A DNA stretch of 27,174 bases, taken from positions 1 through 27,174 of the IMG/VR virus record IMGVR_UViG_3300030376_005442; one strand, 5' to 3'. The DNA comes from a virus. Taxonomy: Duplodnaviria; Caudoviricetes. This document shows positions 1 to 25,371 of this stretch, in pieces (the stretch's first letter is position 1; every line of letters begins with the position of its first letter). The translations under genes and the position numbers were made by a program. The notes beneath the pieces are model-generated. The model worked only from the letters and a program-made list of their open reading frames with translations, did no database searches and was not told the origin of the DNA.

Positions 1-2
1 TA

Positions 3-7274: not shown

Positions 7275-7298
7275 AATGATTGAAACTGTAGAAGATTA

Positions 7299-8447
7299 GT
7301 GTCTCAGGTCACAAACTACAACGTAGAAAATGCTGCTGGTAATGTTGTTCGACAAGACATTATTAATATTCTTGATGCAATAAAAACAAGTAATAGCGGT
7401 GGTTCAGATCCTTCAAACCCTGTAAAATTTATGTTTTACGGGAAATCAAGCGATGATACTTTAAGAATTTACGATGGCTCAAATTTCAGAGTTATAGGAG
7501 ATGTAGGAGAAGATAATTTAGGATTATTACCAAGAGCAGGTGGCACTATGACTGGTGTCATTTTAGCTGATGACGCTTCAGGAGCGAGTGCTCCCGCCAT
7601 AGCGTTTGATGGGGATGCCGATACAGGACTCTTTAGAAAATCAGCAAACACGATTGGGTTGTCAACTGCTGGAACAGAACGAGCGTTTATTGATGTTAAC
7701 GGTTTAACTGTTCAAGCTAGAGGTGATTTAAGACTTGCTGATTCAGATAGTAGTAATTGGGTCGCTCTACAAGCTGCTGCCACGATTGCTTCAAATGTTA
7801 CTTTTACTCTTCCCTCCTCCGATGGCTCGGATGGGCAGATGTTAAAAACAAATGGCTCGGGAACTCTCTCATTCACAACAGTTCAGGGTGTTCCTCCAGG
7901 GGCCGTTTTTTGTTTAGCAGTAGCGACTGTTCCTTCTGATTATCTTGAATGTTCGGGTACGGCTGTAAGCAGGACAACTTATGCTGCTTTATTTCAAGTT
8001 ATTGGTACGACTTATGGTGCAGGAAATGGAAGCACCACTTTCAACGTGCCAGATTTACGAGGGGAATGGATAAGAGGCTATGACCACGGAAGAGGAGTTG
8101 ACAGCGGTAGAGGAGTAGGGACTTCTCAGACATATCAAAACAATACTCACAGTCATGCAAAGGGTTCTTTAGGAGTTACGACAACAAACCAAAGCCATTA
8201 CCATAACTTCCCTGGTGACGATCAACTAAATCAATTCAACGGTGTTGCTGGATGGAATACAAGCAGTGATGGTAGTGCTGCTTATGATGCAACCAGTCGG
8301 GTCGGCAGTGGTCATTCGGCTCCCATGTGGCGCACAACAACAAAAGACACGAACCACAATCACGGAATTAGCGGTTCTACAGCAGCAACAGGTGGAACTG
8401 AAACAAGAGTTAGGAATATAGCGATGATGTATATCATTAAAACTTGA
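7299..8447 (+). CDS. Tail fibre protein with tail-collar domain and HxH-containing tip
   Basis: Collar motif VPPGAV..VPSDYLECSGTAVSRTTYAALF.VIGTTYG.G.GSTTFNVPDLRGEWIRG; terminal ETRVRNIAMMYIIK; GTG start. Confidence 0.88.
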   Translation: MSQVTNYNVENAAGNVVRQDIINILDAIKTSNSGGSDPSNPVKFMFYGKSSDDTLRIYDGSNFRVIGDVGEDNLGLLPRAGGTMTGVILADDASGASAPAIAFDGDADTGLFRKSANTIGLSTAGTERAFIDVNGLTVQARGDLRLADSDSSNWVALQAAATIASNVTFTLPSSDGSDGQMLKTNGSGTLSFTTVQGVPPGAVFCLAVATVPSDYLECSGTAVSRTTYAALFQVIGTTYGAGNGSTTFNVPDLRGEWIRGYDHGRGVDSGRGVGTSQTYQNNTHSHAKGSLGVTTTNQSHYHNFPGDDQLNQFNGVAGWNTSSDGSAAYDATSRVGSGHSAPMWRTTTKDTNHNHGISGSTAATGGTETRVRNIAMMYIIKT

Positions 8448-8479
8448 TGATTGCTAAACTATGAAAAAGTTTTAGTCCT

Positions 8480-8821
8480 ATGGCAGTAGCACCTGGAACG
8501 TATGACATGACGATCCAACGGAGGTCGGATCATAATGTTTCTGTCACGTTGAAAGATTCAGGAGGAAGTGCGGTTAATTTAACGGGTTACACTTTAGCCT
8601 CACAGATTTGGGATTCTGGACGTAGTGCAAAAGCTGCTGATGCAACTGTCTCTGTTACAAATGCTTCAGGTGGAGCGTTTGATTGGAAATTGACCGATAC
8701 TCAGACGGCTACCTTTAGTTCTGATGAATATAAATACGATGTACGTTTAACTAACCCTGCTGGACTGCATGAGTACTGGATAGAGGGTACTATTTATATG
8801 GATGAAGGATACACTGCATGA
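8480..8821 (+). CDS. Small beta-sandwich tail/baseplate adaptor-like protein
   Basis: 113 aa with VNLTGYT..SQI and YKYDV.L....EYWIEG.I patterns typical of phage fibre adaptors; located inside the tail module. Confidence 0.6.
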   Translation: MAVAPGTYDMTIQRRSDHNVSVTLKDSGGSAVNLTGYTLASQIWDSGRSAKAADATVSVTNASGGAFDWKLTDTQTATFSSDEYKYDVRLTNPAGLHEYWIEGTIYMDEGYTA

Positions 8822-9057
8822 CCACAGTCAATATCACAACTAATAAGAACACTGTAACTGTTGACGAAAGCAATAGTTCAGTCATAACGGTTGCGACTCA
8901 GGGACCACAAGGCCCAAGCTTTGCCTCTAGCGGAGTTGGTCTTGCCGATACAAATAGAGTAAATAAAAGTATAATTTATTATGACAGTGCTTCTGGCTCT
9001 TATAAAGCAGATAGTACATGGACAACTAGCACACTCACAGACGGAGGTAACTTCTAG
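8818..9057 (+). CDS. Small tail fibre-associated protein ending in DGGNF
   Basis: ATGA overlap with the upstream gene; short GPQGP collagen-like motif; C-terminal DGGNF. Confidence 0.65.
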   Translation: MTTVNITTNKNTVTVDESNSSVITVATQGPQGPSFASSGVGLADTNRVNKSIIYYDSASGSYKADSTWTTSTLTDGGNF

Positions 9058-10094
9058 TGGCTAACACGATCAGGATCAAAAGAAGCACTGGAAGCACAGC
9101 ACCTACCAGTCTTGAAAACGCAGAATTAGCGTATGCAGAAGGCAATAATATTCTGTATTACGGAACTGGTACGGGGGGAGCAGGAGGAACCGCTACAGCT
9201 ATTGAAGCTATTGGTGGAGACGGGTATTACAACACTCTTTCTACGGCTCAAACGATTTCTGGAGCAAAGACATATACAGGCACAGTTGATTTAAGTAGCG
9301 CAACCGTTCCAACATTTACTTGTTCTCAGAACTTAATTGTAAGTGGAAACCTAACTGTTTCTGGTACGACTACGACTGTCAACAGTACTACCACTACGAT
9401 TGCTGATAAAAACTTAGAATTAGCTAAAGGTGCAGCGAATGATGCGGCAGCCGATGGAGGTGGCATCACCGTGGACTCGGGAGACGGAGACAAAACTTGG
9501 AACTGGGTTAATGCAACTGATTCTTGGACTTCTAATCAAAGCATTGAAGCGGCTGGTTCTGGTCTTAAGTACAGAATTGATGGCGTTGATGTTGTAACGA
9601 AAACTGGATTAGGTTCGACTGTTGTCGGTAGTTCTTTAACTTCTGTTGGAACAATTGGGACAGGTGTTTGGGCCGCAACCGATGTTGCAATTGCTCACGG
9701 TGGAACAGGTGCAAGTACAGCAGCAGGGGCTTTATCAAATTTAGGATTAACAGCAACGGCGGCTGAATTAAATGCACTTGATGGAATCACTTCAACCGTT
9801 GCAGAGTTAAATGTTTTAGACGGAATTACTTCAACCGTTTCTGAGTTGAATATTCTCGATGGCGTTACGGCAACCGCCTCGGAAATAAATCATCTCGATG
9901 GGATCACTTCCACTGTTGCTGAATTGAATATTGTTGATGGTGGAACGTCTGCAACTTCCACGACTTTGGCAACAACAGACCGAATGGTTATCAATGATTC
10001 TGGGACAATGGTTCAGGTTGCATTGTCAGATCTGGTCACATTTTTAGAGAATGGATCGGTTTCAGGTTTTGACATTGATGGAGGAACCTACTAA
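9057..10094 (+). CDS. Tail fibre protein with Mtd-N-like anchor domain and 13-aa tandem repeats
   Basis: N-terminus MANTIRIKRSTGS..P..L..AELAY; GNLTVSGTTTTVNSTT motif; (A/S)ELNxLDGxT repeats; ends DGGTY; GTG start overlapping the upstream TAG. Confidence 0.75.
   Translation: MANTIRIKRSTGSTAPTSLENAELAYAEGNNILYYGTGTGGAGGTATAIEAIGGDGYYNTLSTAQTISGAKTYTGTVDLSSATVPTFTCSQNLIVSGNLTVSGTTTTVNSTTTTIADKNLELAKGAANDAAADGGGITVDSGDGDKTWNWVNATDSWTSNQSIEAAGSGLKYRIDGVDVVTKTGLGSTVVGSSLTSVGTIGTGVWAATDVAIAHGGTGASTAAGALSNLGLTATAAELNALDGITSTVAELNVLDGITSTVSELNILDGVTATASEINHLDGITSTVAELNIVDGGTSATSTTLATTDRMVINDSGTMVQVALSDLVTFLENGSVSGFDIDGGTY
9762..9940 (+). repeat. Degenerate 39-bp coding tandem repeat, about 4.6 copies
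   Basis: Units start at 9762, 9801, 9840, 9879 and 9918 and encode AELNALDGITSTV, AELNVLDGITSTV, SELNILDGVTATA, SEINHLDGITSTV and AELNIVDG. Confidence 0.9.
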
Positions 10095-10123
10095 CTACAA
10101 TTACTACATAGGAGGTAGGTCAA

Positions 10124-13100
10124 ATGGCTAACACAATTAAATTAAAAAGAGGAAGTGGTTCTAACCCTGGTACTTCCGATCTCTCTGTAGGAGAAGTTGC
10201 CTTAAGAACCGATAATGCAACTCTATTCACAAAGAATGATGCTGGAAATATTGCCGAAATCGGTGCATCAAGTGGTGTAGTTGATGGTGATAAAGGCGAT
10301 ATAACTGTTTCTAGTTCGGGTGCGACTTGGACTATTGATGCTGGTGCAATTGATAACGCAAATATCAACAGTAGTGCAGCGATAGCAGGGTCAAAGATTT
10401 CTCCTAATTTTGGATCGCAAACTATAACTGCTGGTAGTGCAACATTTGGTAGCACTTCATTAGGTGATACTACAATTAATTCTTTAGCACCAACATTAAA
10501 CTTTGATGATAGCAACTCTACTCCTGACTACAGAATAATCAACAACAGTGGTTCTTTTGAATTTCAAGATAAGACAAATAGTTTTGCAGCTAGGATTAAG
10601 ATAAATTCTGATGGACACGTTGATGTAGCTGGTAATTTAGACGTAGGTGCTGGTATTGATGTAACAGGGAATATCTCAGTTACAGGAACAGTTGATGGAG
10701 TTGATATTGCGGCAAGAGATGGGACAGCAGCAAGAAAAGATGGCTCAAATATGGGTGCCACCACTTTCAGAGTTGATGGTGCTGATTTTATTGTTAAAGA
10801 TGATACAGATAGTACGACAAACTATATATGGAGAGATCATTCACACGACACGCTTTATTTAGGTACGGCTAACGCAGTTGTTACCCCTAGAAGTTCTGTC
10901 ATACCTAGTGCCGACAGTACTTACAACATTGGTTCAAGTTCTACAAGATTTGCAAATATTTATGGAGATAATATCTTTGGAGATGGATCTAACTTAACCT
11001 CACTTCCAGCAGGTCAATTAACAGGGACAGTAGCAGCAGCAAGATTAGACACAGCTACGACCCAATCAGCAGGAAATAATTCAACAAAAATAGCAACGAC
11101 AGCCTATACAGACACAGCGATTTCAAACTTAGTTGATAGTTCTCCTGGCGCACTAAATACATTAAATGAACTCGCAGCAGCACTTGGAGATGATGCTAAT
11201 TTCTCCACGACAGTAACAAATAGTATCGCCACTAAATTACCTTTAGCAGGCGGCACAATGAGTGGTGCGATTAATTTGAATAGTAATAATATTACAAATG
11301 GCGGTACAATTTCAGGAACATTTAGTGGATCGGGTGCATCTCTCACCAACGTCAACGCAACAACTTTAGATTCGATTGATTCTGGCTCGTTCTTAAGATC
11401 GGATGCTAATGATACGGCTAGTGGAAAAATATCTTTTACAAGTAGTTCTGATTATCCAGTAAATATTAATGGCTCGGATGATGGGAAAATAATGCTTCAA
11501 GGATCAAGTAATCCTTATATAAGATTTAGAGAAAGTACAACAAATAAAGCTTATATCCAATGGTCATCAAGTGGATATATAAATATCGCTAATCAAGAAT
11601 CAGGTGAAACCTTAAGGATAAAGGATGGTGCTAGTGGACTTAAATGGATAGTAGGAAGTACAGAACATACTGTCTGGAACGCTAGCAATGACGGAGCTGG
11701 TAGTGGGTTAGATGCAGATACTTTGGACGGTATTGAAGGTGGTTCGTTCTTACGATCTAACGCTGATGATTCTTTTAGTGGCAAATTAACTTCTACCTAC
11801 GGAAATGATGAAAAGATTGTTCTTAGTAACTCGAATAATCCTTATATAAGATTTCAAGAAGGTAGCACGGATAAAGCATATATCCAGTGGCACACTGATG
11901 GCTATCTTCGGATTGTTAATCAAGAAGATAGCTCAATATTTATTTTTAGAGATAACCCGATTTTTTCACAGGATAATGGAAGTAGTTATTTAACTATCTG
12001 GCACTCTGGAAATGATGGTTCGGGCAGTGGGTTAGATGCTGATCTTTTAGATGGACAAGAAGGTTCTTATTACAGAAACGCTTCTAACATAAACGCTGGA
12101 ACGATTGCAGCAGCTAGGGTTGCAACCCTTAATCAAGACACAACAGGAAACGCTGCAAGTGCTGATACTGTTGATATAGCTGGAAACGGTACCGATAATA
12201 GTTACTCAGTCATATTTTCTACAAACGGAGCCGCAGCAGGAAGAAGTTTAGCTATTGATTCCTCTAGCTCTCAATTCGTTTATAATCCAAGTTCTAATGT
12301 TTTAACAGTCGGTAGTGTTACAGGAAATTTAACAGGTTTAGCATCTTCGGCCTCTATATTGCACATTTCTAGAACTATTGCTGGAACTTCCTTTAATGGA
12401 TCGGCTAATATCGATATTTCATACAACAATTTAACGAATAAGCCAACAATACCGACCAATAATAATCAACTTACAAATGGTGCTGGATATATAACTTCAG
12501 CCAACGGTGGAAACGCTGCAACTTTAGATTCGATTGATTCTAGTCAGTTTGTTAGGTCTGATACTGGGGATACATTAACTGGCGATTACAACACATCAGG
12601 AAAGTGGTTAATTGGTGGTACTTATAGCAATAACCCTTATAACTCAGTATCAAGTACACGTTTACTCTTTGGAGGTGGAAATGATCAAGATAATTACTTT
12701 ATTGGAACAAATTTAGAGAATTATGGCGGCAACTACACCAAGTTAGACCTCCGTTGGCATACAGGAATAAGGATGGGGGCGCAGTCTGGTTACGGCGGAA
12801 TAAGATTTTATAATAATGAAGATTTAAGTACTGTTTTATTTTCGGTTAGCAAAGGTGATGCAAATACAAGGATTGAATCTGGCGAGCTTTATCATAATAC
12901 AAGTGGTACAAGTGACGTTTATTGGCATGTATCCAATGATGGTTCTGGTAGTGGATTAGATGCAGATACTTTGGATGGTGTTCAAGCAGGTGGATTTTTA
13001 AGAGCAGACACGGCTGACACTGCAAGTGCAGATATTACTTTTGGCGGCGGTGCTGGTGCTGTAAATATTGCAGCAGGAAGTGATATAAGATTTATTGATA

Positions 13101-13465
13101 CGACCAATAGTGCATGGACAGGTAATCCTGGCACAAATGCAAAGATTCAAGGCCATTCGGGTTACTTATATCTTGTTGGTGGTCAAAACGGAATTGTCTT
13201 TAGAGAAGATGGTACAGATAGGTGGTATCTAGACGGGAGTGGTCATATCACACCAGCTTCAAATAATACTTACGACATAGGAAAGTCAAGTCATCGAGTT
13301 AAAAATATATATACCAATGACCTTCATTTATCTAACGAAGGAGGTTCAAACTCTGTTGATGGAACATGGGGAGATTGGACACTGCAAGAAGGAGATGAAA
13401 ACATTTTTATGATTAACAACAGAACTGGTAAGAAGTATAGAATGGGTTTAGTGGAGGTTACTTAA
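10124..13465 (+). CDS. Long modular tail fibre protein
   Basis: 1113 aa, Gly/Ser/Thr/Asn-rich; RBS GGAGGT; N-terminus MANTIKLKRGSGS; LVDSSPGALNTLNELAAALGDD motif; repeated NDGxGSGLDADxLDG linkers; C-terminal domain DLHLSNEG..DGTWG.WT.QEG. Confidence 0.85.
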   Translation: MANTIKLKRGSGSNPGTSDLSVGEVALRTDNATLFTKNDAGNIAEIGASSGVVDGDKGDITVSSSGATWTIDAGAIDNANINSSAAIAGSKISPNFGSQTITAGSATFGSTSLGDTTINSLAPTLNFDDSNSTPDYRIINNSGSFEFQDKTNSFAARIKINSDGHVDVAGNLDVGAGIDVTGNISVTGTVDGVDIAARDGTAARKDGSNMGATTFRVDGADFIVKDDTDSTTNYIWRDHSHDTLYLGTANAVVTPRSSVIPSADSTYNIGSSSTRFANIYGDNIFGDGSNLTSLPAGQLTGTVAAARLDTATTQSAGNNSTKIATTAYTDTAISNLVDSSPGALNTLNELAAALGDDANFSTTVTNSIATKLPLAGGTMSGAINLNSNNITNGGTISGTFSGSGASLTNVNATTLDSIDSGSFLRSDANDTASGKISFTSSSDYPVNINGSDDGKIMLQGSSNPYIRFRESTTNKAYIQWSSSGYINIANQESGETLRIKDGASGLKWIVGSTEHTVWNASNDGAGSGLDADTLDGIEGGSFLRSNADDSFSGKLTSTYGNDEKIVLSNSNNPYIRFQEGSTDKAYIQWHTDGYLRIVNQEDSSIFIFRDNPIFSQDNGSSYLTIWHSGNDGSGSGLDADLLDGQEGSYYRNASNINAGTIAAARVATLNQDTTGNAASADTVDIAGNGTDNSYSVIFSTNGAAAGRSLAIDSSSSQFVYNPSSNVLTVGSVTGNLTGLASSASILHISRTIAGTSFNGSANIDISYNNLTNKPTIPTNNNQLTNGAGYITSANGGNAATLDSIDSSQFVRSDTGDTLTGDYNTSGKWLIGGTYSNNPYNSVSSTRLLFGGGNDQDNYFIGTNLENYGGNYTKLDLRWHTGIRMGAQSGYGGIRFYNNEDLSTVLFSVSKGDANTRIESGELYHNTSGTSDVYWHVSNDGSGSGLDADTLDGVQAGGFLRADTADTASADITFGGGAGAVNIAAGSDIRFIDTTNSAWTGNPGTNAKIQGHSGYLYLVGGQNGIVFREDGTDRWYLDGSGHITPASNNTYDIGKSSHRVKNIYTNDLHLSNEGGSNSVDGTWGDWTLQEGDENIFMINNRTGKKYRMGLVEVT
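11354..12990 (+). repeat. Dispersed direct repeats at module junctions in the long fibre gene
   Basis: Exact 23-mer CAACTTTAGATTCGATTGATTCT at 11361 and 12519; exact 20-mer TTAGATGCAGATACTTTGGA at 11708 and 12956; exact 19-mer TAATCCTTATATAAGATTT at 11509 and 11836. Confidence 0.85.
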
Positions 13466-13920
13466 TGGCTATTGACGGCGTAATGAACATCGTGCAGGTA
13501 CAACACCTGTGGTGGACTACAGCAACGTTTATGGGTAATTGTCAGAACAGACAAGATATAAGTGGTTTTGCTAAATCAATTACGACAAAATTTTCAGGAA
13601 GCAAAGTATTAGTGCATGTGCAATTTACAGGTAAGTTGATTTGTGATGGTTCGCTTGGGTTCAGGAGAAACAGCACTCAAGTTGTGGATCGTTTTTTAGG
13701 AACTGATAGAGATAATCAAGGAAGTGGTGGCTACCATGATGCAGAAACTTATGCTGGACAATATCTTGATGATTTTAGTTCAACAGCAGGAACGACATAC
13801 ACATATCAAATGACTACTATAGTTACTGGTTGCGGGGATGACGCTTACTTTAATCGAGATCCGTCAGGCTCCGACCAAAATGGTAAAAGTTCAATCACTT
13901 TATATGAGGTGTCAGCATAA
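13465..13920 (+). CDS. Small beta-rich distal fibre or receptor-binding-like protein
   Basis: TAATG-coupled to the long fibre gene; IVQV..IT.K.S.SKVLV..TYTY..SSITLYEV pattern typical of small fibre-tip proteins. Confidence 0.6.
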   Translation: MAIDGVMNIVQVQHLWWTTATFMGNCQNRQDISGFAKSITTKFSGSKVLVHVQFTGKLICDGSLGFRRNSTQVVDRFLGTDRDNQGSGGYHDAETYAGQYLDDFSSTAGTTYTYQMTTIVTGCGDDAYFNRDPSGSDQNGKSSITLYEVSA

Positions 13921-14318
13921 TGAAGCACACTGTATTGTCTGCCTTTGATGCACTTAGACCAGGAGTAAGTTACCAAGTAGACAGCCCTTTTGGATATGAA
14001 GATATAACCATAATGAGTGTCCCACATAAATCATTTGTGGATACCTCTTCACTTACGATGCCATCAGAAACAGAAATTAATAATAAAATTGCAGAGTTAG
14101 ATGCTGCAGAACCGATGAGACTATTAAGAGAAGAAAGAGATCAAAAATTATTAGAGACTGATTGGACACAGAATCCTGATGTACCAGATGCAACTAAAAC
14201 AAAGTGGCAAGTATATAGACAAGCATTGAGAGATTTACCATCCACGGCTGAGCCCAAATTAAATGCTGGTTATCATTTAGATCAGGCTTCAGTCACTTGG
14301 CCTACAGAACCAACCTGA
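13920..14318 (+). CDS. Tail fibre assembly chaperone-like protein
   Basis: C-terminal LREERDQKLLETDWTQ.PD...WQVYRQALRDLP...WPTEP motif; TAATG-coupled. Confidence 0.8.
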   Translation: MKHTVLSAFDALRPGVSYQVDSPFGYEDITIMSVPHKSFVDTSSLTMPSETEINNKIAELDAAEPMRLLREERDQKLLETDWTQNPDVPDATKTKWQVYRQALRDLPSTAEPKLNAGYHLDQASVTWPTEPT

Positions 14319-14319
14319 T

Positions 14320-14712
14320 TTACTCAGGGCCAGAATTAGCATCTGGAGTAATAGTTGGAGCAGCAGAATAAGAAGTATCCTTACTTGCAACTTCTATTTC
14401 AGTTGCTTTTTCGTTGTGCTTATCAATAGCAGATTGAACAAAACCTTCTAGCTTTTTAACTTTGTAGTCAGTCCAACCAGCTTTTACCCAGTCAACAACA
14501 GTAGTTTCACCTTCTGCTTTTTTAAGATCATCAAGTGATTTAAAGTCAGAGCCAACACCTGCTTTATTACCAGGGAAGACACAATGGCAAGAAGTTGACT
14601 TGGTTACAGATCCTTCCGTTCCAAAGATCTCTACTGTTGCTTCAGTAATGTAGTTATCATCATTTGGATCGGTTTTAAGGCTTTTTACCTTATAGACAAA
14701 AGTTGCTGCCAT
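14320..14712 (-). CDS. Hypothetical phage protein, antisense to the tail operon
   Basis: 130-aa ORF with RBS-like AAGGA and a TATACT -10 upstream; no competing long ORF on the + strand. Confidence 0.75.
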   Translation of the reverse strand: MAATFVYKVKSLKTDPNDDNYITEATVEIFGTEGSVTKSTSCHCVFPGNKAGVGSDFKSLDDLKKAEGETTVVDWVKAGWTDYKVKKLEGFVQSAIDKHNEKATEIEVASKDTSYSAAPTITPDANSGPE

Positions 14713-14998: not shown

Positions 14999-15050
14999 CC
15001 ACAATTAGGCTAGTGTGAGCAAGAGCTTTTAAAATTGCGTCTCTTATCAT
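14874..15050 (-). CDS. Putative small membrane protein (58 aa, MIRDAILKALAH...)
   Basis: From ATG 15050 it has one long hydrophobic stretch (SLIVAIGLIPLLPLYLVLL); it overlaps the 3' part of 14798..14998 on the opposite strand. Confidence 0.4.
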   Translation of the reverse strand: MIRDAILKALAHTSLIVAIGLIPLLPLYLVLLEQVQSQQFLLQTEYRLEVEESQPLLD

Positions 15051-15303
15051 GCAAAAAATTCTCAACATTATCAGTGTACTTTCCTTTATACTTGTAGCAG
15101 CAATCACTGGTGGCGGGGTGTTTGGTTATTTATGGATAACCAATGAAGATAATCAGAAGATGCTTCAAGATAAAGCAATGGAAAAAGTAATGGGAGCGAT
15201 GAAAATGCCTGGATTATCTGGCCCTGCTCTCCCTACTGGAGCGTTAAGTCCTAAGCAACAAAAGAACGAAGAAAAGAAAGCTTTTGGATTACCTAGCTTT
15301 TGA
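15049..15303 (+). CDS. Single-pass membrane protein
   Basis: N-terminal TM helix IISVLSFILVAAITGGGVFGYLWI, then a short helix and a Pro/Gly-rich tail. Confidence 0.75.
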   Translation: MQKILNIISVLSFILVAAITGGGVFGYLWITNEDNQKMLQDKAMEKVMGAMKMPGLSGPALPTGALSPKQQKNEEKKAFGLPSF

Positions 15304-16016
15304 TTCCTGAAATTGAAATCCCTGCTGTAGGGGTTAAACCTGTTAAAACATATTTATTGAAAGCACCTGTTGTTAATGCTCCGAACGTACCAATCAATGT
15401 ACCGATAGGGTTTCCAGTGATTGAAATGCCTTGTGTTAAAGCGAGGCGAAGTATTGAAAATGATGCCTTAATCAATAACGATCCAGATTATAATTTGATT
15501 TTGTGTAGTGGTTCGGGAGCACCTGCCTATGAGCCAATGAATTATGACCCTTTACAAATAGTGCCTATAAAAGATGAAGAGCCACAACGATACGAAGAGC
15601 CAGAAATCCCTCCAGCAGCAGCAGTGCCAGAACAACAGCCAGAAGAGTGTCCTCCCGATGGTGCGCCTGAGATTGGTACAAAAGTAGAAGAAGGTACTAA
15701 ACAGATTATTAAGTATGAATTGGTCGGAAACCGTTGTGTAACTAGATATAAAAAATTAAATGTTCAACAACAGATAATTGATGCCATTCCCACCGTTCCA
15801 CAAATTGTAAAAACTGGTTCAATAACTTTGGTGGCGACTAGCGTTGCATTAAGTTCGCCAATTTTATTGAAGGCTGTGAAACCGATACTCCAGCAGGTTA
15901 TCAAGAAGATCAAAAAGATATTAGGTAAGAAAGTAAAACGACCAAACTTATCTGAGAGGAGAACTACTTCTTATCGGGAGAAACGGGGTTTGCCTCCTGT
16001 AAAGGAGAAGAAATAA
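15300..16016 (+). CDS. Pro-rich, four-Cys protein with a C-terminal membrane anchor and basic tail
   Basis: TTG start overlapping the upstream TGA; hydrophobic ITLVATSVALSSPILL followed by a Lys/Arg-rich tail. Confidence 0.75.
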   Translation: MIPEIEIPAVGVKPVKTYLLKAPVVNAPNVPINVPIGFPVIEMPCVKARRSIENDALINNDPDYNLILCSGSGAPAYEPMNYDPLQIVPIKDEEPQRYEEPEIPPAAAVPEQQPEECPPDGAPEIGTKVEEGTKQIIKYELVGNRCVTRYKKLNVQQQIIDAIPTVPQIVKTGSITLVATSVALSSPILLKAVKPILQQVIKKIKKILGKKVKRPNLSERRTTSYREKRGLPPVKEKK

Positions 16017-16752
16017 CGTGCCTATGTGGTAAGACTTGACCCATTTTAGGTTTAACTACAACATCTTCACAGAGATGGAAGTAAGGAGAATTTTTAGCAA
16101 ACTCAATTCCACCTAGTTTCAATTTTCCACATTCACGTAATCTTGCGATGTGCCAATCTAGTTTTTTATTATCAATTAGTTGCTGTTGATGCTCTCCTTG
16201 CAGTTTTGCGTTTTTCAAGCAACGCTCTTGAAATCTTTTATCAAGTGGCATTGAAAAAGTTAAACTTGCTCCAAGATTAAGTGAGAAATTATCCTTCTGT
16301 CCTGTACGTGTTCTTTGATGATATAAAATGTCTCCTTCATCGCTGTAGACTGGAGAGTCATACCAGTATTCTCTTGGTTTAGAGAATGAATGTGAGTCAG
16401 TTACAAAGGGAGAGAATGTAAGCATCGGCCCCTGACAAACAACCCCACCTCCGTATTGGTTTTGTATAAGATTTCCCTGCAATGTCTGGATCGCCATGTT
16501 AGTTAGCGAAGCTGATGTATTAGCAACTGGGGCCGCAGTTTGTGAAGTATTAGCTAATGCACTTGAGCCACTAAATAATATTATTGCGAGAAGACTGAGG
16601 TTGTTTCTGTAACACTTTCTAAGACTGTTGTTCGATTGATTGTTGTCATGTTGGATAGACCAGGGCCAATGTAACTTTCTGCGTATTGAAACGCCTGACC
16701 TGGGTTGGCAATCGTGACGTTTGGTTTGGTTGTTAAATCTGCTCCTGTCCAT
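15964..16752 (-). CDS. Exported protein, candidate oligomeric outer-membrane channel subunit (start uncertain)
   Basis: Signal-like segment RKCYRNNLSLLAIILFSGSSALA; amphipathic strands PMLTFSPFVT and NFSLNLGASLTFSMPLD followed by a long helix; four Cys in the mature part. Confidence 0.65.
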   Translation of the reverse strand: MDRSRFNNQTKRHDCQPRSGVSIRRKLHWPWSIQHDNNQSNNSLRKCYRNNLSLLAIILFSGSSALANTSQTAAPVANTSASLTNMAIQTLQGNLIQNQYGGGVVCQGPMLTFSPFVTDSHSFSKPREYWYDSPVYSDEGDILYHQRTRTGQKDNFSLNLGASLTFSMPLDKRFQERCLKNAKLQGEHQQQLIDNKKLDWHIARLRECGKLKLGGIEFAKNSPYFHLCEDVVVKPKMGQVLPHRHVISSPLQEANPVSPDKK

Positions 16753-17015
16753 GTATAACTTACTCCATTAATTGTTTGGCTCGTTTCTGCTGGCGAAGGT
16801 GAAAGGGTCGTGCCATCAATAGACAAATTCGTTCCATTGATCGTATAAGTATGCCCAGTGTTGAAGTCAGTAGAGACAATAGATTCAGTAACATTTTGTG
16901 TAGTACGTGTAACGGCGGACATTGTACCACTAGAAAAATTTGGCACAACTGGCACTGCTATGACTGGCTTTTGCCAGCTATTTAATAACAACAATAGCAG
17001 TAAATAACGCTTCAC
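16581..17015 (-). CDS. Secreted Thr-rich beta protein with Sec signal peptide
   Basis: GTG start; MKRYLLLLLLLNSWQKPVIA signal peptide; mature part VPVVPNF... is rich in Thr/Ser/Asn and has no Cys. Confidence 0.8.
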   Translation of the reverse strand: MKRYLLLLLLLNSWQKPVIAVPVVPNFSSGTMSAVTRTTQNVTESIVSTDFNTGHTYTINGTNLSIDGTTLSPSPAETSQTINGVSYTWTGADLTTKPNVTIANPGQAFQYAESYIGPGLSNMTTINRTTVLESVTETTSVFSQ

Positions 17016-17107
17016 TTATGTATATCCATATAGTGTTTCCACATTAATAAGTTGAATGTAAAAACAATAATGACAGATATAAAGCAAACAATTAGTGGAA
17101 CGTGCAT
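17012..17107 (-). CDS. 31-aa single-TM microprotein (MHVPLIVCFISVIIVFTFNLLMWKHYMDIHK), not in the ORF track
   Basis: Translated by hand; fills the gap exactly, with a TGATG overlap upstream and a GTGA overlap downstream. Confidence 0.7.
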   Translation of the reverse strand: MHVPLIVCFISVIIVFTFNLLMWKHYMDIHK

Positions 17108-17592
17108 CACTTCACGGTGACAGAACTTACAACAGATCCAGTTGCCACAGTGCCTCCCGATCCTGGTGTTAGAGAAACAACTCCAGCACTTGTCACTGAG
17201 CCAGCAAGTGACCCTGCTGTTCCTGAAGCATGAGAAGTAACGTCACTGAAATTACCCACAGCACCGACTGAAGGAGCAGATGTTGGAACAGCGTCAGCTT
17301 GAGTGTATGCCTGGCTGAACGAAAATGATTCACCCGAAGTAGCGTTCTGAGTCGCTGCAATAGTCCCTGGGGAATAGACTCCACTTGTGATCGTGCCAGC
17401 ACTCATCGTTCCAGCAGTTGTCCCATCAGTTACATCCACTCCAGTACCAGAGATAGAGAAACTCGACCCTATGCGTTCTGCCTGAGTAACAGCAGCATTT
17501 ACCTGAAGCTGTGCGCTAGAGGTGATGCTATGTGTCAAATCTGCGTTAGCAGAAGGAGCCGCTAAAAATAGCAGCAAAAATAGCTTCTTCAT
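17107..17592 (-). CDS. Secreted Ser/Thr/Gly/Ala-rich beta protein with Sec signal peptide
   Basis: MKKLFLLLFLAAPSANA signal peptide with an AxA cleavage site; low-charge mature region; ATGA overlap with the upstream gene. Confidence 0.82.
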   Translation of the reverse strand: MKKLFLLLFLAAPSANADLTHSITSSAQLQVNAAVTQAERIGSSFSISGTGVDVTDGTTAGTMSAGTITSGVYSPGTIAATQNATSGESFSFSQAYTQADAVPTSAPSVGAVGNFSDVTSHASGTAGSLAGSVTSAGVVSLTPGSGGTVATGSVVSSVTVK

Positions 17593-18047
17593 GTGAGTTT
17601 GCCTGATTGTGGATCGACTTCTTTCCCTGTGATGGGGTCAATCTTAGGTTCTTGTGGAACCAGTTTAATAGGAGTTTCGATTCTTATGGTTTGGAACGAA
17701 CCAGACTGCTCACTAAGCATCGCCTGTATCTCTTTTTTATTCATAGGCTTTTCATCTTCTGATTTATATGTTCCATCACCACGCTTTTTCCCACCCTCTA
17801 AACCAAACGAAGCCAAGGCTCCAGTTAGCAAACTCGCAGGAAAAGTTATATCTTTAGGGTCAGAACTGTAACCTGGAATAGTTATATAGTTTAAAGTTAC
17901 GATAAATCCAGACCAAATGACAACACCCAAACGCACTGCTACACCTATGATCTGAAGCTGTTCTTCTTTATCTTCAGCGATGTCTTTTAGTTTACCAATT
18001 GGCCCTTTTTTATTAGGCTTGGCTTCAGGAGTTTGTTTTTCTGTCAT
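17589..18047 (-). CDS. Two-TM inner-membrane protein (holin-like topology)
   Basis: Likely start ATG 18047 (MTEKQTPEAK); hydrophobic segments IIGVAVRLGVVIWSGFIVTLNYI and ITFPASLLTGALASFGL; charged N- and C-termini. Confidence 0.72.
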   Translation of the reverse strand: MTEKQTPEAKPNKKGPIGKLKDIAEDKEEQLQIIGVAVRLGVVIWSGFIVTLNYITIPGYSSDPKDITFPASLLTGALASFGLEGGKKRGDGTYKSEDEKPMNKKEIQAMLSEQSGSFQTIRIETPIKLVPQEPKIDPITGKEVDPQSGKLT

Positions 18048-18092
18048 AGAAAAATAGAAACAATAGTCTAAGATTACTCCAAAAGGATAAAA

Positions 18093-18278
18093 ATGCCTCA
18101 AGAACTACTCGCAGCCTTGATAGGGGCTGCTGTCTCTGGAGCGTTAATGGTTTTAGCGAACCAAACAAACAAGAGGCAACGAGATATACGTGAAATTTTC
18201 CATCGTTTAAATGCTATTGATAAGGAGCTTGCTACGCTTACAGCAACACGCAACCCAAATGGATGGAGGAAAAGATAG
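18093..18278 (+). CDS. Small membrane-anchored coiled-coil protein
   Basis: RBS AAGGA; TM segment LLAALIGAAVSGALMVLA followed by the coiled coil IREIFHRLNAIDKELATL. Confidence 0.7.
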   Translation: MPQELLAALIGAAVSGALMVLANQTNKRQRDIREIFHRLNAIDKELATLTATRNPNGWRKR

Positions 18279-18417: not shown

Positions 18418-18657
18418 ATGGGAATTTCTAGCTTTCCAGGCGCAAACATTATCACCGACACTGCTGCTCATACGGGCAAATTTGCGAAGATCACTTGCTT
18501 AACAGATTCAACAGTTACTTTGGTTTCTCCAAACGTCACTAAAAACGGAACGACAACTGTTTCTGGAATTGTTTTAAAAGCAGGTACAGAGATAGAAGGA
18601 ATCTTCACTAGTGTCACTCAGACAAGTGCTGGATCACTTATTGCTTACAGCGTCTAA
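18418..18657 (+). CDS. Small beta-rich hypothetical protein, possibly a virion decoration protein
   Basis: 79 aa, Thr/Gly/Ile-rich short strands, ends GSLIAY; function inferred only from composition. Confidence 0.7.
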   Translation: MGISSFPGANIITDTAAHTGKFAKITCLTDSTVTLVSPNVTKNGTTTVSGIVLKAGTEIEGIFTSVTQTSAGSLIAYSV

Positions 18658-19007: not shown

Positions 19008-19205
19008 GTGAGTCTAATTATGCGAAAACTAGCTAAACCTTTTCTACCTCTTCTTTATGCTTTTTTGCGTAGTGAAACAGGTAAAAAATTGTTACTGGAT
19101 CTATTGAGATCAGCAGCAAAACAGACTACAAATACACTTGATGACGAGGCTGTAAACTTCCTTCAGTCAAGGTTATACCCTGGTTCTACTACTAAATTAC
19201 AATGA
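19008..19205 (+). CDS. Small amphipathic helical hypothetical protein
   Basis: KPFLPLLYAFL..KKLLLDLL..T.NTLDD.AV.FL pattern; the true start may be ATG 19020. Confidence 0.7.
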   Translation: MSLIMRKLAKPFLPLLYAFLRSETGKKLLLDLLRSAAKQTTNTLDDEAVNFLQSRLYPGSTTKLQ

Positions 19206-21090: not shown

Positions 21091-23079
21091 CTAATGCACC
21101 TCACTCCACTTTTTACCAACAGATGTTTCTGCCAATGGAGGTATGTCTCCTTCGTTTGGTGTTAAGTAATCAAGCCATATTCCTTCTGCCTGTTCCATAA
21201 TGCTGCTGAGTTTCTTAGACCATTTATCCTCAAATCCCTCCTTAACTAATAGGAGTAATTCGTCATGCACAGCAGCCGCAATCTTGACTTCCTTTTCTCC
21301 TGCCTTATAAACCTCTTTCCATAGTTCACCTAATGCCATCTTCAATATGGCTGCCCCTGCACCCTGTATAGGTGTGTTACATCTAACAGTAACCTTATTC
21401 AAATCCCCTGGTAATAAACGCTTCATTTTAGATAAAGGTATGCGAATAAAGGGAAGTGCATCCGTTCCACCAGCATCAGTGGCTTTGTTAAGAGTCCTTT
21501 GAGCCTTAGCAGCTTCAGCAGCATTGTCCTCCTGCCACTTCCTTATTCCCTGGTACGTCTGCAACCAATCCTCTCTGATCTTTATTGCTTCAGGCATGGT
21601 CATTGTTACTCCACTTGCACCTGCGTAATTCCTCAGACCTTCTGCACCCGCCCCATACAACAAACCAAAGTTTGCTGATTTTGCTATCTGCCTATCACAA
21701 CCCATCGCATTAGCGGTGAACTCATGTAAGTCTCCACCTTCTTTAAATACAGATGCCATGTTTTTATCTTGGGCCAAAGCAGCAGCCAAGCGAAGTTCCA
21801 TCTGTCCATAGTCAGCATCTACTAAGGACCAACCTTCAGGAGCTTGAACACATTGCCTAAAAGAAGCATCTCTAGGAATCTGCTGATTATTGGGTTTAAT
21901 ACAACTCATTCGACCTGTATCTGCCCCAAGCTGCATATATGAAGCTCGAACAAAACCATCACTAGCCATTTTCTCCTTAATGGAAGTGACCATCTGCCTT
22001 CTCTTCTCTGTCTTCTTCCATTGCAGATACTTATGCACTACCTCATGGTCTGCTGTATAAGATCTCAAAGCTTGCCTTGACGCACTGGGTTTACCCTTTG
22101 CATCTCTAGGCTCTTCACCTAAAACAGCAGTGAATTTTTCCAGTAGTTGTTTAGGGCTATTAAGGTTAAATCCCCTGTACTTTTTAGTACCAAGACGTAT
22201 TGAACCTTCGTCTTTCGCACGTAAATTAAACGCTTCCATTTCTAGCTCTTCTATCTCCTCGTACAAACGTGCCCTAGTTTCTGGATCGTGCCCTGGTTCG
22301 CACAACTTATCCTTAATCTCAGTGATCCTTACATGAGCGTCACCTTCTCTAGGAAGTTTCAGCTCATCAGGCAAAGCCTTATTTAGGTCTTCCAAAAATT
22401 CTTTACCCATATTCTCTGCATCAAATTCGTAGTCCTTACGGCACTGCTCTAATGCTTCAGCGTTCCAGGGTAAACCTGTTCTCCACATCTGAGCCAAAGC
22501 TGGTATAGCTCTAGACTCTAGGATCTCAGCTTTTCTCAACTGCCCATACTGAAGCTTCCTTTCCATAACCTCATACAGATCAGGTAAAACCTCCACATCT
22601 TTAGCAGCGTAGGCTTTCTGTTCCTCACTTAAATAAGGTGCGCTCCAATCAGAAGTTTGCTGCTCTTTAGATAGTTCTATATCTAAATGCTTTTTACAAA
22701 CAGCAGCTAAACCATGCTTTAACCCTGGTATGCCATTGGTAAGCAAGCGATTAGCCAGCATCGTGCATTTAATACCTGTGTTCAAGGTGTTGGGATGTAT
22801 CCCGTATTCCTGAAGCCAAGCAATATCAAATACAGCATTGTGGGCTATCCACATTCGAGGTGTATTGAAAAACCTCCTTACCTGCTCAAAATCATCTTGC
22901 GTTAGATCAAAGCAGTCAAGAACAACAACACTAGCTCTACTCTTACAAGCAAGCTGGATTAAACGCAGCTTTCCCTGTTCAGGTTGTAACTGGAGCGTTT
23001 CTGTATCGAACGCTATGGATACGGATGTTTGAAGCACGTTTAGATGCTCAATACCGTAGTACACTTTGTAGTTAATCAT
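21091..23079 (-). CDS. polA: Family A DNA polymerase with 3'-5' exonuclease domain (no 5'-3' exonuclease)
   Basis: Exo I AFDTET, Exo II HNAVFD, Exo III YAAKD; TGRMS..PN.QQIPR; motif A DADYGQMELR; motif B RQIAKSANFGLLYG (Phe at the 762-equivalent); NTPIQG; motif C VHDEL. Confidence 0.96.
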   Translation of the reverse strand: MINYKVYYGIEHLNVLQTSVSIAFDTETLQLQPEQGKLRLIQLACKSRASVVVLDCFDLTQDDFEQVRRFFNTPRMWIAHNAVFDIAWLQEYGIHPNTLNTGIKCTMLANRLLTNGIPGLKHGLAAVCKKHLDIELSKEQQTSDWSAPYLSEEQKAYAAKDVEVLPDLYEVMERKLQYGQLRKAEILESRAIPALAQMWRTGLPWNAEALEQCRKDYEFDAENMGKEFLEDLNKALPDELKLPREGDAHVRITEIKDKLCEPGHDPETRARLYEEIEELEMEAFNLRAKDEGSIRLGTKKYRGFNLNSPKQLLEKFTAVLGEEPRDAKGKPSASRQALRSYTADHEVVHKYLQWKKTEKRRQMVTSIKEKMASDGFVRASYMQLGADTGRMSCIKPNNQQIPRDASFRQCVQAPEGWSLVDADYGQMELRLAAALAQDKNMASVFKEGGDLHEFTANAMGCDRQIAKSANFGLLYGAGAEGLRNYAGASGVTMTMPEAIKIREDWLQTYQGIRKWQEDNAAEAAKAQRTLNKATDAGGTDALPFIRIPLSKMKRLLPGDLNKVTVRCNTPIQGAGAAILKMALGELWKEVYKAGEKEVKIAAAVHDELLLLVKEGFEDKWSKKLSSIMEQAEGIWLDYLTPNEGDIPPLAETSVGKKWSEVH

Positions 23080-23311
23080 CTAACTTAAGCTCCAACTGTC
23101 TAGGGTCGTTTGTTCTAAGAAGGTGGTCCAGTAAATCTGAAGTTGCCTTGCTATAACCTTCGTAACAAGCCCACTTTTCACGGGCCAGGTCATAGTCTTT
23201 TACTTGCATAGCTTCGTTATACTCTTGGCGATAACGCTTCTGCTTATCGAACAGCTCTGTATGTGCATCTAGTAATGCAGTTTGCTTGTTCAAACGAGTT
23301 TTGAGGTCCAT
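23072..23311 (-). CDS. Hypothetical helical protein
   Basis: 79-aa ORF overlapping the polymerase start. Confidence 0.65.
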   Translation of the reverse strand: MDLKTRLNKQTALLDAHTELFDKQKRYRQEYNEAMQVKDYDLAREKWACYEGYSKATSDLLDHLLRTNDPRQLELKLDD

Positions 23312-23313
23312 AA

Positions 23314-24048
23314 TTAATGTCCGTAGTGATCTCTGAGGTACTTGGGAATTTTGTCTGAATAACCGTTATTAGTTAGAGTTCTAACTAACTTCTTCCACTG
23401 AAATTCGTATTTTCTAGATACTTCAGGAAAGCTATATCCTAAGTAGTATCTTTTACAATTTTCAAACGGTAAGTGGAACATTTGAGGGATAACACGTTTA
23501 AGTAAATAACCTAAATTGTGCTTCTGTTCGTGACTCTTTCGGTAGTCGTTGTTTTTATGCCACTTAAATATGTAAGTAAGCACTCTATCCACAACTTCTT
23601 TATCCGTAATGGCACGATTAGCCTTCCTAGCTTCTCTCTCAATGCTGGTATCTTTCCAGTTAAGAGGTTTTTGTTCTACAGGAGGTAGAACAGTCACTTT
23701 AGGTTCAGAATCTTCGAGAACTGCATCTCTAATGACCTGAACTAAAGCAGGAGGAGCAGGTTTCTTTTCTTCTACTTTCTCTTCTTTTTCAAGAGCAGCT
23801 TGCTTCGCTTTGATAGCGGCTAACTCTTTACTGGAGCGTGGTCTAGTACCAACTTCACTTGTTATAAAAGCGAACTGGTCAAGAGAAGTAGAGACAGTAA
23901 TCCTGGTGATAGTTTCCTGCTTAATATCTTCCTCTTCGTAAGATATATAGACAGTGTTATCTATAACCTGGACAGCAGAAATACGAGCTGTACTTAAGTC
24001 AAGTTTCTTCTTTTTAATGAAGAACTCCTGTTCAGTGATTTCTATCAT
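23314..24048 (-). CDS. Hypothetical protein
   Basis: 244-aa ORF, two domains joined by a charged/Pro linker; no recognised motif. Confidence 0.75.
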   Translation of the reverse strand: MIEITEQEFFIKKKKLDLSTARISAVQVIDNTVYISYEEEDIKQETITRITVSTSLDQFAFITSEVGTRPRSSKELAAIKAKQAALEKEEKVEEKKPAPPALVQVIRDAVLEDSEPKVTVLPPVEQKPLNWKDTSIEREARKANRAITDKEVVDRVLTYIFKWHKNNDYRKSHEQKHNLGYLLKRVIPQMFHLPFENCKRYYLGYSFPEVSRKYEFQWKKLVRTLTNNGYSDKIPKYLRDHYGH

Positions 24049-24206
24049 TTAGCCTCTCCCTGAAGGACAAGTATTTTGTGCATAAGTAAATGCAGTTCAG
24101 CTATCTCATCTTTAACTGCATCCCAATCTCCGCACATAACTTTATCGTGTTCGTCACGAACCAGGTTATAAAGAATGTCTAGCTCGTCTTTAGATAAGTT
24201 ATACAT
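24045..24206 (-). CDS. 53-aa hypothetical protein (MYNLSKDELDILYNLVRDEHDK...), not in the ORF track
   Basis: Translated by hand; GGAGG RBS upstream; ATGA overlap with the downstream gene. Confidence 0.7.
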   Translation of the reverse strand: MYNLSKDELDILYNLVRDEHDKVMCGDWDAVKDEIAELHLLMHKILVLQGEAK

Positions 24207-24208
24207 AG

Positions 24209-24562
24209 TTAATTATTGTCCTCCAAGTCCTTAATTACGGGACACTTGATAGAAGGGCATGATGTGTGCTGTACTGGCTCATTTTTGTAACCAAGCATTG
24301 CAAGCATCTCCTGTTCAATCTTACCTATCAAATCATCTTGATCTTCGTGAGAGGCTTTCCCATCTTTATCAAGCTTATTATGTCCAGTAAGACCGTAAAA
24401 AGAGTTATGCAATTTAGCGTACTCTAATTGGTCAGAATGAAGTTCCTGTAAGCCTGTACATATAACTAAAGCCAAGTAAGACTTAACTTCTCTTAAATGG
24501 TATTTAGCAAGAATTTTAATAACTCTTTCTTGCAACTTTGTGAGTTTTAGCTCTTGTGGCAT
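24209..24562 (-). CDS. Hypothetical protein
   Basis: 117-aa ORF in operon orientation. Confidence 0.65.
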   Translation of the reverse strand: MPQELKLTKLQERVIKILAKYHLREVKSYLALVICTGLQELHSDQLEYAKLHNSFYGLTGHNKLDKDGKASHEDQDDLIGKIEQEMLAMLGYKNEPVQHTSCPSIKCPVIKDLEDNN

Positions 24563-24606
24563 TTGGGTTTAACGGAATGATTACCGCCCCTGTAAATTAC
24601 TCTCTT

Positions 24607-24629
24607 ATTGTAGCAGGACGTTGTACTAC
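24607..24629 (-). promoter_or_regulatory. Putative extended -10 promoter (TGcTACAAT) with adjacent GTAGTACAACG motif
   Basis: ATTGTAGCA at 24607-24615 on +; the 11-mer at 24619-24629 recurs at 20822-20832. Confidence 0.45.
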
Positions 24630-24680
24630 ATAGTTAATTCTCAAGGGTTTTGTTAAGAGATAGAAATAAATGTGTATCTC

Positions 24681-25292
24681 TTATACCTTTGTTTCCTGTC
24701 TAAGATTAGACCCTGCATGTTCTATAGCGTCTTCGTAACTCCAGTTTGTATGGTCTACAGATACAGAAGGTTTCTCTATCACCCAACCATCAGCAGCAGA
24801 AACACAACCACATGCAGGGCATGTATTTCTCAAGTTAAACATAGGTCTTAGTTTAAGTAATGTTGGTCTGCCTAATTTGTAGCAGTGATGGTAGTTGAAT
24901 AAACGCCCAAATAGAGGTGACATACGATTACTTATTATCGGCTTACCTAATTTTCCTTCTGCTGTCAGTACTTCTTTTACTCGTTGGTTATTAAATATGG
25001 GGTTAGGCATAGAATTTATATCTTTTATGATGTTCATAGACCCCATTGAGTCGTGATCATCCCTTAAGTCATAGTCATAAGTGACCTTACAAAACATGTG
25101 CCATGCAAGTTTCCCCAAAGTTGTTTCTAGATAAGCTTGAAGTTCTTCGTACTTATACATCTGCCCCGATTCCTTAAGACCTAAGTCTTTCCCCATATCG
25201 TAGTAAACTGTTGGTATATTTCGATCATCTTCAAACCAGTCTAAACGAGGGACATACTTGTATTCCCCGTACATATCCGAAAATCTAGTCAT
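24681..25292 (-). CDS. Hypothetical protein with a CPACGC motif
   Basis: 203-aa ORF preceded by its own promoter-like sequence. Confidence 0.7.
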   Translation of the reverse strand: MTRFSDMYGEYKYVPRLDWFEDDRNIPTVYYDMGKDLGLKESGQMYKYEELQAYLETTLGKLAWHMFCKVTYDYDLRDDHDSMGSMNIIKDINSMPNPIFNNQRVKEVLTAEGKLGKPIISNRMSPLFGRLFNYHHCYKLGRPTLLKLRPMFNLRNTCPACGCVSAADGWVIEKPSVSVDHTNWSYEDAIEHAGSNLRQETKV

Positions 25293-25314
25293 ACATTGTT
25301 CTATTAGTTTAACA

Positions 25315-25343
25315 AGTATAACAGGGGCGTTATTCTGCTACAA
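25315..25343 (-). promoter_or_regulatory. Sigma70-type promoter TTGTAG-N17-TATACT with TG extension
   Basis: Minus strand reads TTGTAG cagaataacgcccctgt TATACT, 22 nt upstream of ATG 25292. Confidence 0.6.
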
Positions 25344-25371
25344 CTTTATTTTCAACACTTTAAATACCTAT

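Follow-up and report, generated by a model that had tools for sequence, protein, structure and literature searches.

What a cassette of genes that are carried by cyanophages of several kinds, and that resemble no enzyme, does for these viruses is the question raised by a locus in the IMG/VR virus record IMGVR_UViG_3300030376_005442 (Duplodnaviria; Caudoviricetes). The record, which is 68% complete, was analysed over its positions 1 to 27,174 (the window), and the eight genes in question, designated A to H, lie between lambda-like tail genes (tape measure, gpM/L/K/I/J-type and fibres; 1-14318) and replication genes (from 21091). The answer proposed here is that the conserved cassette builds a trans-envelope channel late in infection and serves lysis in place of the endolysin-spanin route, i.e. 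as a non-canonical lysis apparatus, a proposal to which we give about an even chance of being correct. The role in lysis is argued from genomic context: the cassette likely represents an undescribed lysis route, because it is found in the endolysin slot and seldom together with an endolysin.

PMC6139136, PMC3037559 and PMC5082946 are cited throughout from the parts consulted. Kongari et al. (PMC6139136) list 91 phages devoid of spanins, 20 of which infect Prochlorococcus or Synechococcus, and propose that the outer membrane of such hosts may simply be fragile. The cassette is a concrete candidate for the means by which Prochlorococcus and marine Synechococcus are lysed by their phages and, since it is present in S-TIP37 and P-SSP7, the lysis question is directly testable. 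A bolder statement is put forward tentatively, as somewhat doubtful: that one very widely distributed group of ocean cyanophages leaves its hosts by a lysis machine of a new kind, a pore that assembles itself across the envelope and needs neither endolysin nor lipoprotein spanin, and that the hidden start of its pore subunit has been retained in the adjacent gene across three lineages. Shown at the level of sequence are the co-inheritance of the genes, the start codon of C within D, the place of the cassette in the genome and its near exclusivity with one endolysin family; new are the internal start, the slot replacement with its near exclusivity, and the reach into T7-like and lambda-like phages, the cluster itself having been noticed in 2010 (PMC3037559).

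A conserved unit in three types of cyanophage

With three C sequences as queries, 240 viral loci were retrieved, and were grouped by query (not by taxonomy) as lambda-like, T4-like and T7-like; loci that extend for 2.5 kb or more to either side are referred to as well flanked. G-F-D-C faces B in 24/24 well-flanked lambda-like loci (A in 23, H in 20, E in 12), and F-D-C faces B in 34/34 T4-like ones (A in 33, G in 31); the 12 T7-like loci all carry G-D-C, without F or A, and have a shorter B-like gene, recognized by eye, before G. E and H are absent from the well-flanked T4-like and T7-like loci. The conserved unit is a core of G, D and C plus a B-like tail-anchored protein, shared by lambda-like, T4-like and T7-like cyanophages; F and A join it in the lambda-like and T4-like groups, and E and H are local genes outside it. 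The reading made from the window's sequence alone (the sequence-only reading) had taken all eight open reading frames (ORFs), each of which is present where it was placed, as one unit; the unit has to be reduced accordingly, and the co-occurrence across unrelated types of cyanophage, also considered there, is borne out.

On the minus strand of the window, G (17589..18047; DUF6450, phrog_2714 and 721, T4-GC218) is a small core protein in which a strong hydrophobic segment is paired with a weak one, and for which a holin-like role may be proposed. It is followed by F (17107..17592; phrog_564, T4-GC237), a signal-bearing, S/T/G/A-rich protein; by E (17012..17107), an accessory hydrophobic peptide of 31 amino acids; by the core gene D (16581..17015; DUF6322, phrog_650, T4-GC236), Thr-rich and with a signal peptide; and by the core gene C (15964..16752; phrog_848 and 1755, T4-GC235), which has a long basic signal peptide and four conserved Cys and is a predicted outer-membrane channel subunit. 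On the plus strand, A (15049..15303; phrog_568, T4-GC414) is an N-terminal transmembrane (TM) protein, the so-called plasmid stability protein; B (15300..16016; phrog_570, T4-GC234) is a Pro-rich protein whose hydrophobic segment comes about 70% of the way along the chain and whose tail is basic, and its 3′ end overlaps C by 53 nucleotides; and the accessory H (18093..18278) combines an N-terminal TM segment with a charged helical tail. The translationally coupled minus-strand operon described earlier stands for G/F, F/E and E/D, which overlap by 4, 1 and 4 nucleotides, and not for C, the ATG of which lies deep inside D.

Only D and G belong to Pfam families, and the PHROGs are families of unknown function save for the plasmid stability label of A. 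As read from the window, no enzyme family was found for A-H in Pfam or PHROGs, a single weak row of D against a PHROGs peptidase (E 0.007) not being significant. D and F are paralogues (HHalign probability 92%, E 5e-7; the ESM Atlas neighbours of F are DUF6322 proteins), and the ESM Atlas returned own-family clusters only.

Out of 50,697 phage records, 444 matched C; 312 of these bear the name Synechococcus, 80 Cyanophage, 38 Prochlorococcus, 10 Marine, 3 uncultured and 1 Tiamatvirus, and a cyanobacterial host is inferred from these names. The cassette is carried by 444-459 deposited phage records, S-TIM5 and P-RSP2 among them, and D forms at least 7,983 protein clusters. A single-pattern scan of 185,579 prokaryote genomes gave 12 matches, all in contigs shorter than 42 kb with the same cassette, and phage genes are present in the five examined in detail. 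These short contigs (L244-L255), filed under Saccharibacteria, Formosa, Lewinella, Euryarchaeota, Chloroflexota, Coraliomargarita and others, are likely mis-binned cyanophage DNA. As far as searched, the cassette is cyanophage-restricted and a member of no tested family. Metatranscriptome contigs contain relatives, mostly below 95% identity, that cover parts of it, strand and expression not being readable from them.

In the annotation of P-HM2, G, A, B, C, D and F are T4-GC218, 414, 234, 235, 236 and 237, respectively. Sullivan et al. (PMC3037559) listed T4-GC 218/219/234/235/237 as a ‘mobile hypothetical gene cluster’ of T4-like cyanophages, giving no function, and reported it in all 16 of them except S-PM2, in agreement with the lack of a C match in S-PM2, where regA and hsp20 adjoin; P-TIM40 has the cassette at that place. 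Thus, the system is uncharacterized, as supposed from the window, in that no function has been described, although the cluster had already been reported. Neither a functional description of the cassette nor the name DUF6322 was found in the literature searched, which left out most subscription journals, and the parts consulted of PMC2784084, PMC4646655 and PMC13002823 hold nothing on the cassette.

Genome slot and relation to the endolysin

In P-SSP7, gp42-45 correspond to the B-like gene, G, D and C and lie between the tail fibre and the terminase small subunit, as does the cassette of P-SSP10; in S-CBP1 and S-CBP2 the tail-fibre-to-terminase slot holds an annotated lysozyme/endolysin, and C is absent. 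In S-CBS1, tail fibre, H-like gene and lysozyme follow in a row, the H profile matching the gene within this stretch (E 1.9e-5).

The N-terminal domain of the S-CBP1 endolysin (labelled C39 peptidase in some records) occurs in 105 phage records, all of cyanophages. Among 15 carriers of an endolysin of this type, 13 gave no C match (S-CBP1, S-CBP2, P-SS2, S-CBS1, S-CBS2, S-EIVl, S-PM2, ACG-2014f, S-N03, S-B68, S-SZBM1, S-CREM2 and S-SRM01), the other two being S-CAM7, with a divergent stand-alone C-like gene only, and DSL-LC02, with the whole cassette. When 15 cassette carriers were searched with the same domain, DSL-LC02 was the one match, two of the 14 negatives being incomplete records. The panels were hand-picked and their members are related, and the Fisher p of 8e-6 is therefore not used; a DUF6322 search in five cassette-less records, which had no positive control, is not counted. 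The exclusivity recurs in three phage types, and the pattern is also seen in pairs with a shared host (WH7803, S-PM2 versus Syn33; MW02, S-N03 versus S-H38).

At E 1e-4, no Pfam family of endolysins, holins or spanins was found in 96 ORFs of at least 70 amino acids from two CheckV-complete, cassette-bearing siphoviruses, a scan that omitted the cassette genes, duplicates, shorter ORFs and 321 terminal bases of one genome (G004), and in which a tail-tip NlpC/P60 domain was the only lytic-type match. This agrees with the lack of a recognizable endolysin or lipoprotein o-spanin noted in the window, as do Pfam and PHROGs, in which the cassette itself matched no holin, spanin or endolysin family. 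The sequence-only reading had left the choice between a lysis apparatus and a curli- or fimbria-like structure; the former gains evidence from the slot replacement and the near exclusivity, and the latter gains none, no CsgA, CsgF, CsgG or pilin family having been matched and D being modelled as a long hairpin.

Two side observations concern this panel. In S-CAM7 (L290; the genes concerned lie at 2383-3288 and 5005-6000), the divergent C-like gene has an ordinary signal peptide, belongs to a family of its own (70 clusters) and follows a small signal-bearing, S/T/G-rich gene, whose identification as D-like was not supported (probability 4%); 2 kb beyond it lie two genes whose N-termini resemble those of type IV pilins. 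Endolysin-bearing cyanophages have a similar small TM gene beside the endolysin (L259:1516-3308, L274:3565-3795, L281:2012-2170; phrog_15106 in S-CBP1), which is a candidate for the holin of that route.

The start of C inside D

No ATG, GTG or TTG is available to C near its h-region. Its start is put at the ATG at 16752, in the -1 frame and 172 nucleotides inside D, which gives a leader of about 67 residues, basic (median +9 among homologues); the dual-coding overlap (16581..16752, minus strand) encodes this leader and the h-region. The ATG is formed by conserved x-Trp codons of D, from which the -1 frame is open to the D stop, and GGAG stands 10 nucleotides upstream in the lambda-like and T4-like groups. 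Among 244 loci, the end of D is in the expected frame in 219, the 25 others being mostly contig ends among those listed; the Trp is conserved in 216 of the 219, and in the remaining three no stop interrupts the frame as far as an ATG that lies at a Trp further upstream. Other Trp codons serve as the start in some divergent T7-like loci and in DSL-LC02.

Codon choice was examined after dereplication at 90%, which left 104 sequences. The base that precedes the Trp codon produces ATG in 99 and GTG in 5 and, where all four bases would be free, ATG is found in 63/63 (23.4 expected). Between the C start and the D stop, -1-frame stops are used at none of 1,072 possible junctions (320 expected); upstream of the C start, they are formed at 324/991 (338 expected). 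In the final 54 codons, 207/207 D ends are free of -1-frame stops, compared with 4/129 for F, 0/183 for G and 4/144 for B. The choice of ATG and the avoidance of -1-frame stops strongly indicate, at the level of sequence, internal initiation of C within D, which is the firmest new result. A D-C frameshift fusion was considered and is disfavoured on three grounds: stops are avoided only from the ATG onwards (they are used at 57/91 and 4/105 junctions in the two preceding bins and at none in any later bin), there is selection on the ATG itself, and C of one locus (L130) has its own ordinary start. Formally, a frameshift might still occur downstream of the C ATG. The long form of C is annotated in P-HM2 and P-SSP10, and C was missed in S-RSM4 and truncated in P-SSP7. 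Whatever the function, the hidden start mends an error that recurs in annotations and offers a clear example of dual coding conserved over a long time.

Predicted export and structure

Signal sequences were called with a hydropathy/motif heuristic on distinct homologue ends, not with SignalP. An h-region was found in 198/200 C, 172/172 D and 63/63 F ends, in line with the signal peptides and envelope targeting read from the window, and an AxA-like site in 197, 145 and 62 of them, respectively. A lipobox (regular expression) was found in no C, D or F end (0/200, 0/172 and 0/63) and in none of A, B and G; it occurs, not conserved, in 3/42 H and 2/32 E. Tat export of C was rejected, a Tat-like motif being present in only 5/216 leaders. 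Among 188 G homologues, 65 have two hydrophobic segments, 118 one and five none; the earlier description of G as a two-TM protein holds for the strong segment and less so for the weak one. The four Cys by which C had been recognized as an exported four-Cys protein are invariant in the mature part of a 62-sequence alignment.

The AlphaFold2 model of mature C (114 sequences; pLDDT 78.8, pTM 0.48) consists of a disordered N-terminus, a long hairpin (43-69, 75-102), a 42-residue helix (105-146) and a small Cys-bearing end. The proximal strands of the hairpin are amphipathic (faces 1.13/-0.22 and 1.94/-1.17) and its distal loop is polar, so that the pore-like subunit postulated earlier would correspond to C, with a hairpin like the stave of a pore. 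Mature D (83 sequences; pLDDT 85.1, pTM 0.48) is modelled as a long two-strand hairpin, not a beta-solenoid, with terminal strands of 24 and 25 residues (9-32 and 99-123), both largely polar, and a small beta domain between them; covariation gives a weak preference to one antiparallel register (0.054, the next having 0.026; effective depth 28). The lone long hairpins of both models suggest oligomeric barrels or tubes. Foldseek against the PDB, a check proposed with the sequence-only reading, gave no match at E 0.001 for either model; weak rows for both are long-hairpin barrel formers (TM-scores of at most 0.25), which were not used as identity, and the top row for C is the FlgH ring (E 0.076, non-significant). 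A PDB sequence search with the C profile gave two rows, both at E above 0.7, and a complex prediction with three copies each of C and D scored 0.00, a value that, as the controls were not folded, counts neither for nor against a complex.

Proposed mechanism and alternative explanations

In the proposed lysis route, D, F and C would be exported through Sec. As modelled, each C subunit could contribute one amphipathic hairpin to an outer-membrane barrel, leaving its helical part in the periplasm; D and F are predicted to form a polar beta-tube, and B, A and G to reside in the inner membrane, where G would time lysis in the manner of a holin. Besides the slot and the near exclusivity, this role is favoured by the mid or late expression of the P-HM2 homologues and by the absence of the cluster from the virion table (both detailed below), by the 20 spanin-less phages of Prochlorococcus and Synechococcus, and by the amphipathic faces of the C hairpin. 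The cassette proteins would bind one another and their assembly would breach the envelope, passage through the peptidoglycan needing a host enzyme or an unrecognized phage enzyme.

Several observations weigh against this role. Wall degradation is left unexplained, because no catalytic family or fold was found in any member (A-H by sequence; C and D by fold), and the pTM of both models is only 0.48. DSL-LC02 has both cassette and endolysin, and Syn5 has neither; weak endolysin-domain matches (30% over 138 amino acids), excluded from the count above, occur in S-RIM14, S-SSM2 and S-ShM2, of which S-RIM14 carries C; the cassette carrier S-SM1 has a virion ‘Lysozyme murein’ (T4-GC607); and P-SSP7 gp50 shows a weak endolysin profile (E 1e-9). 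In T4-like phages the cassette moves, and sits among replication or photosynthesis genes, and the divergence of G does not track that of D and C in the T4-like and T7-like groups (rho -0.04 to 0.13). Since the panels were hand-picked and related, the exclusivity may track lineage or habitat.

The same genes could instead remodel the surface or periplasm against further phage entry or lysis (superinfection exclusion, lysis inhibition), or form a surface polymer, as might be expected from the envelope targeting that the heuristic assigns to every member, from the near universality and mobility of the cassette in T4-like cyanophages (PMC3037559), from the S/T/G-rich nature of the paralogues D and F, and from the one cassette carrier that also has an endolysin. 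We regard this as unlikely: the P-HM2 homologues are expressed in the mid or late classes (light/dark: G, B and F late/late, C mid/mid, D late/mid), none being early (PMC5082946 supplement), no curli, pilin or known exclusion family was found in Pfam or PHROGs, the D model is a hairpin rather than a solenoid, and the endolysin slot and exclusivity would be left without account. They would be so too if the cassette were an auxiliary transport or secretion channel of the virocell (for solute uptake or export of phage products) with no role in lysis. The membrane-stave-like hairpin modelled for C, the tube-like one for D and the frequent neighbourhood of hli, psbA and petF in T4-like phages are consistent with such a channel, but chromosomal homologues were not encountered in the prokaryote scan, and the cassette includes no gene for an ATPase, a TonB-like protein or a binding protein; we consider this channel quite improbable.

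Finally, the products may be minor components of the virion or may assist tail assembly, or else the exclusivity may be an artefact of lineage, the genes having roles unrelated to one another. The genes adjoin tail-fibre genes in lambda-like and T7-like phages, the fold rows of the weakest level include phage collar proteins (E 0.01-0.2), and virion proteomics can miss small proteins; yet signal-like N-termini are conserved, the same genes occur across three tail types, the D/C overlap is strict, and none of the cassette T4-GC numbers is in the virion Table S8 for S-SM1, S-PM2 and Syn9 as taken from PDF text (PMC3037559), a check that covers T4-like phages only and accords with the earlier view that these are not ordinary virion components. 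This last explanation is very unlikely.

Neighbouring genes

At 15298-15303, B starts at a TTG overlapping the A stop in a T-run, and 40/47 A/B junctions listed for the lambda-like group have a TTTTGA context. A frameshift fusion of A and B would fit topologically, because B has no signal peptide; A and B lie apart in T4-like phages and in G004, which counts against it. T4-like phages have, between A and B, an extra membrane-type gene of about 200 amino acids (L002:5383-5997; phrog_605), absent from the window.

Upstream, a minus-strand DUF7936 gene (14320-14712) runs against the direction of the tail genes; in S-CBP1, a phrog_7802 relative stands on the plus strand before the lysis slot. Downstream, a gene of 79 amino acids (18418-18657; phrog_34166) has look-alikes among the head-tail genes of G004 and G008 (L283:9322, L285:8615). 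K (19008..19205, plus strand; phrog_2738 and 402), a small protein outside the cassette as first described, follows C in 11/12 well-flanked T7-like loci but is also found in Syn5, a phage devoid of the cassette. A family A DNA polymerase and a primase-helicase are encoded at 21091-27123; complete relatives with the cassette have ERF, RusA and PD-(D/E)XK genes and no polymerase match, so that the replication modules differ.

Comparison with known systems

TolC, curli and the T7 gene order enter the comparison by their generally known features. An amphipathic hairpin followed by a long helix, with a strand ending in P-L-D, likens C to the ring channels of the TolC/OEP and CsgG/FlgH types. C differs from them in having one hairpin per chain (TolC/OEP subunits being two-repeat alpha/beta proteins), in not being a lipoprotein, in its disulfide-type Cys pairs, and in the lack of any OEP family or any sequence or fold match at E 0.001. 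Similarly, Sec-type signals and S/T/G-rich paralogous subunits beside a candidate pore recall curli (CsgA/B with CsgE/F/G), from which the cassette is set apart by the lack of a Pfam match, of a solenoid in the D model and of a lipoprotein pore.

Among lysis proteins, G is holin-like by a weak criterion (a small protein in the lysis slot with one to three TM segments and charged termini), 183/188 homologues having one or two hydrophobic segments, and has no holin family match (DUF6450 and unknown PHROGs only). No muralytic domain of an endolysin was recognized in A-H by sequence, nor in C and D by fold. The T4-GC cluster of Sullivan et al. comprises the same genes as the P-HM2 homologues of the cassette; function, localization, start sites, reach into T7-like and lambda-like phages and relation to the endolysin are not treated in the parts of PMC3037559 consulted.

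As for spanins, C, D and F lack the lipobox expected of an o-spanin lipoprotein. An i-spanin has an N-terminal TM segment and a periplasmic helical domain and is encoded beside the o-spanin; in the cassette, A and H have an N-terminal TM segment, are short and are not core, and D is beta-rich. Unlike a unimolecular spanin, which combines an N-terminal lipobox and a C-terminal TM segment in one chain, B has a late TM segment and no lipobox or signal, and C, D and F have no C-terminal TM segment. The pair also departs from the overlapped two-component Rz/Rz1 spanins (PMC6139136), since the upstream gene, D, encodes a beta-rich protein with a signal of the cleavable type, in place of a TM-anchored coiled coil, and its overlapped C-terminus is conserved. 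Nevertheless, the D/C pair comes close to Rz/Rz1 in its arrangement, as envelope genes in overlapping reading frames at the lysis slot, the second of which is often missed in annotation, as C was in S-RSM4 and P-SSP7.

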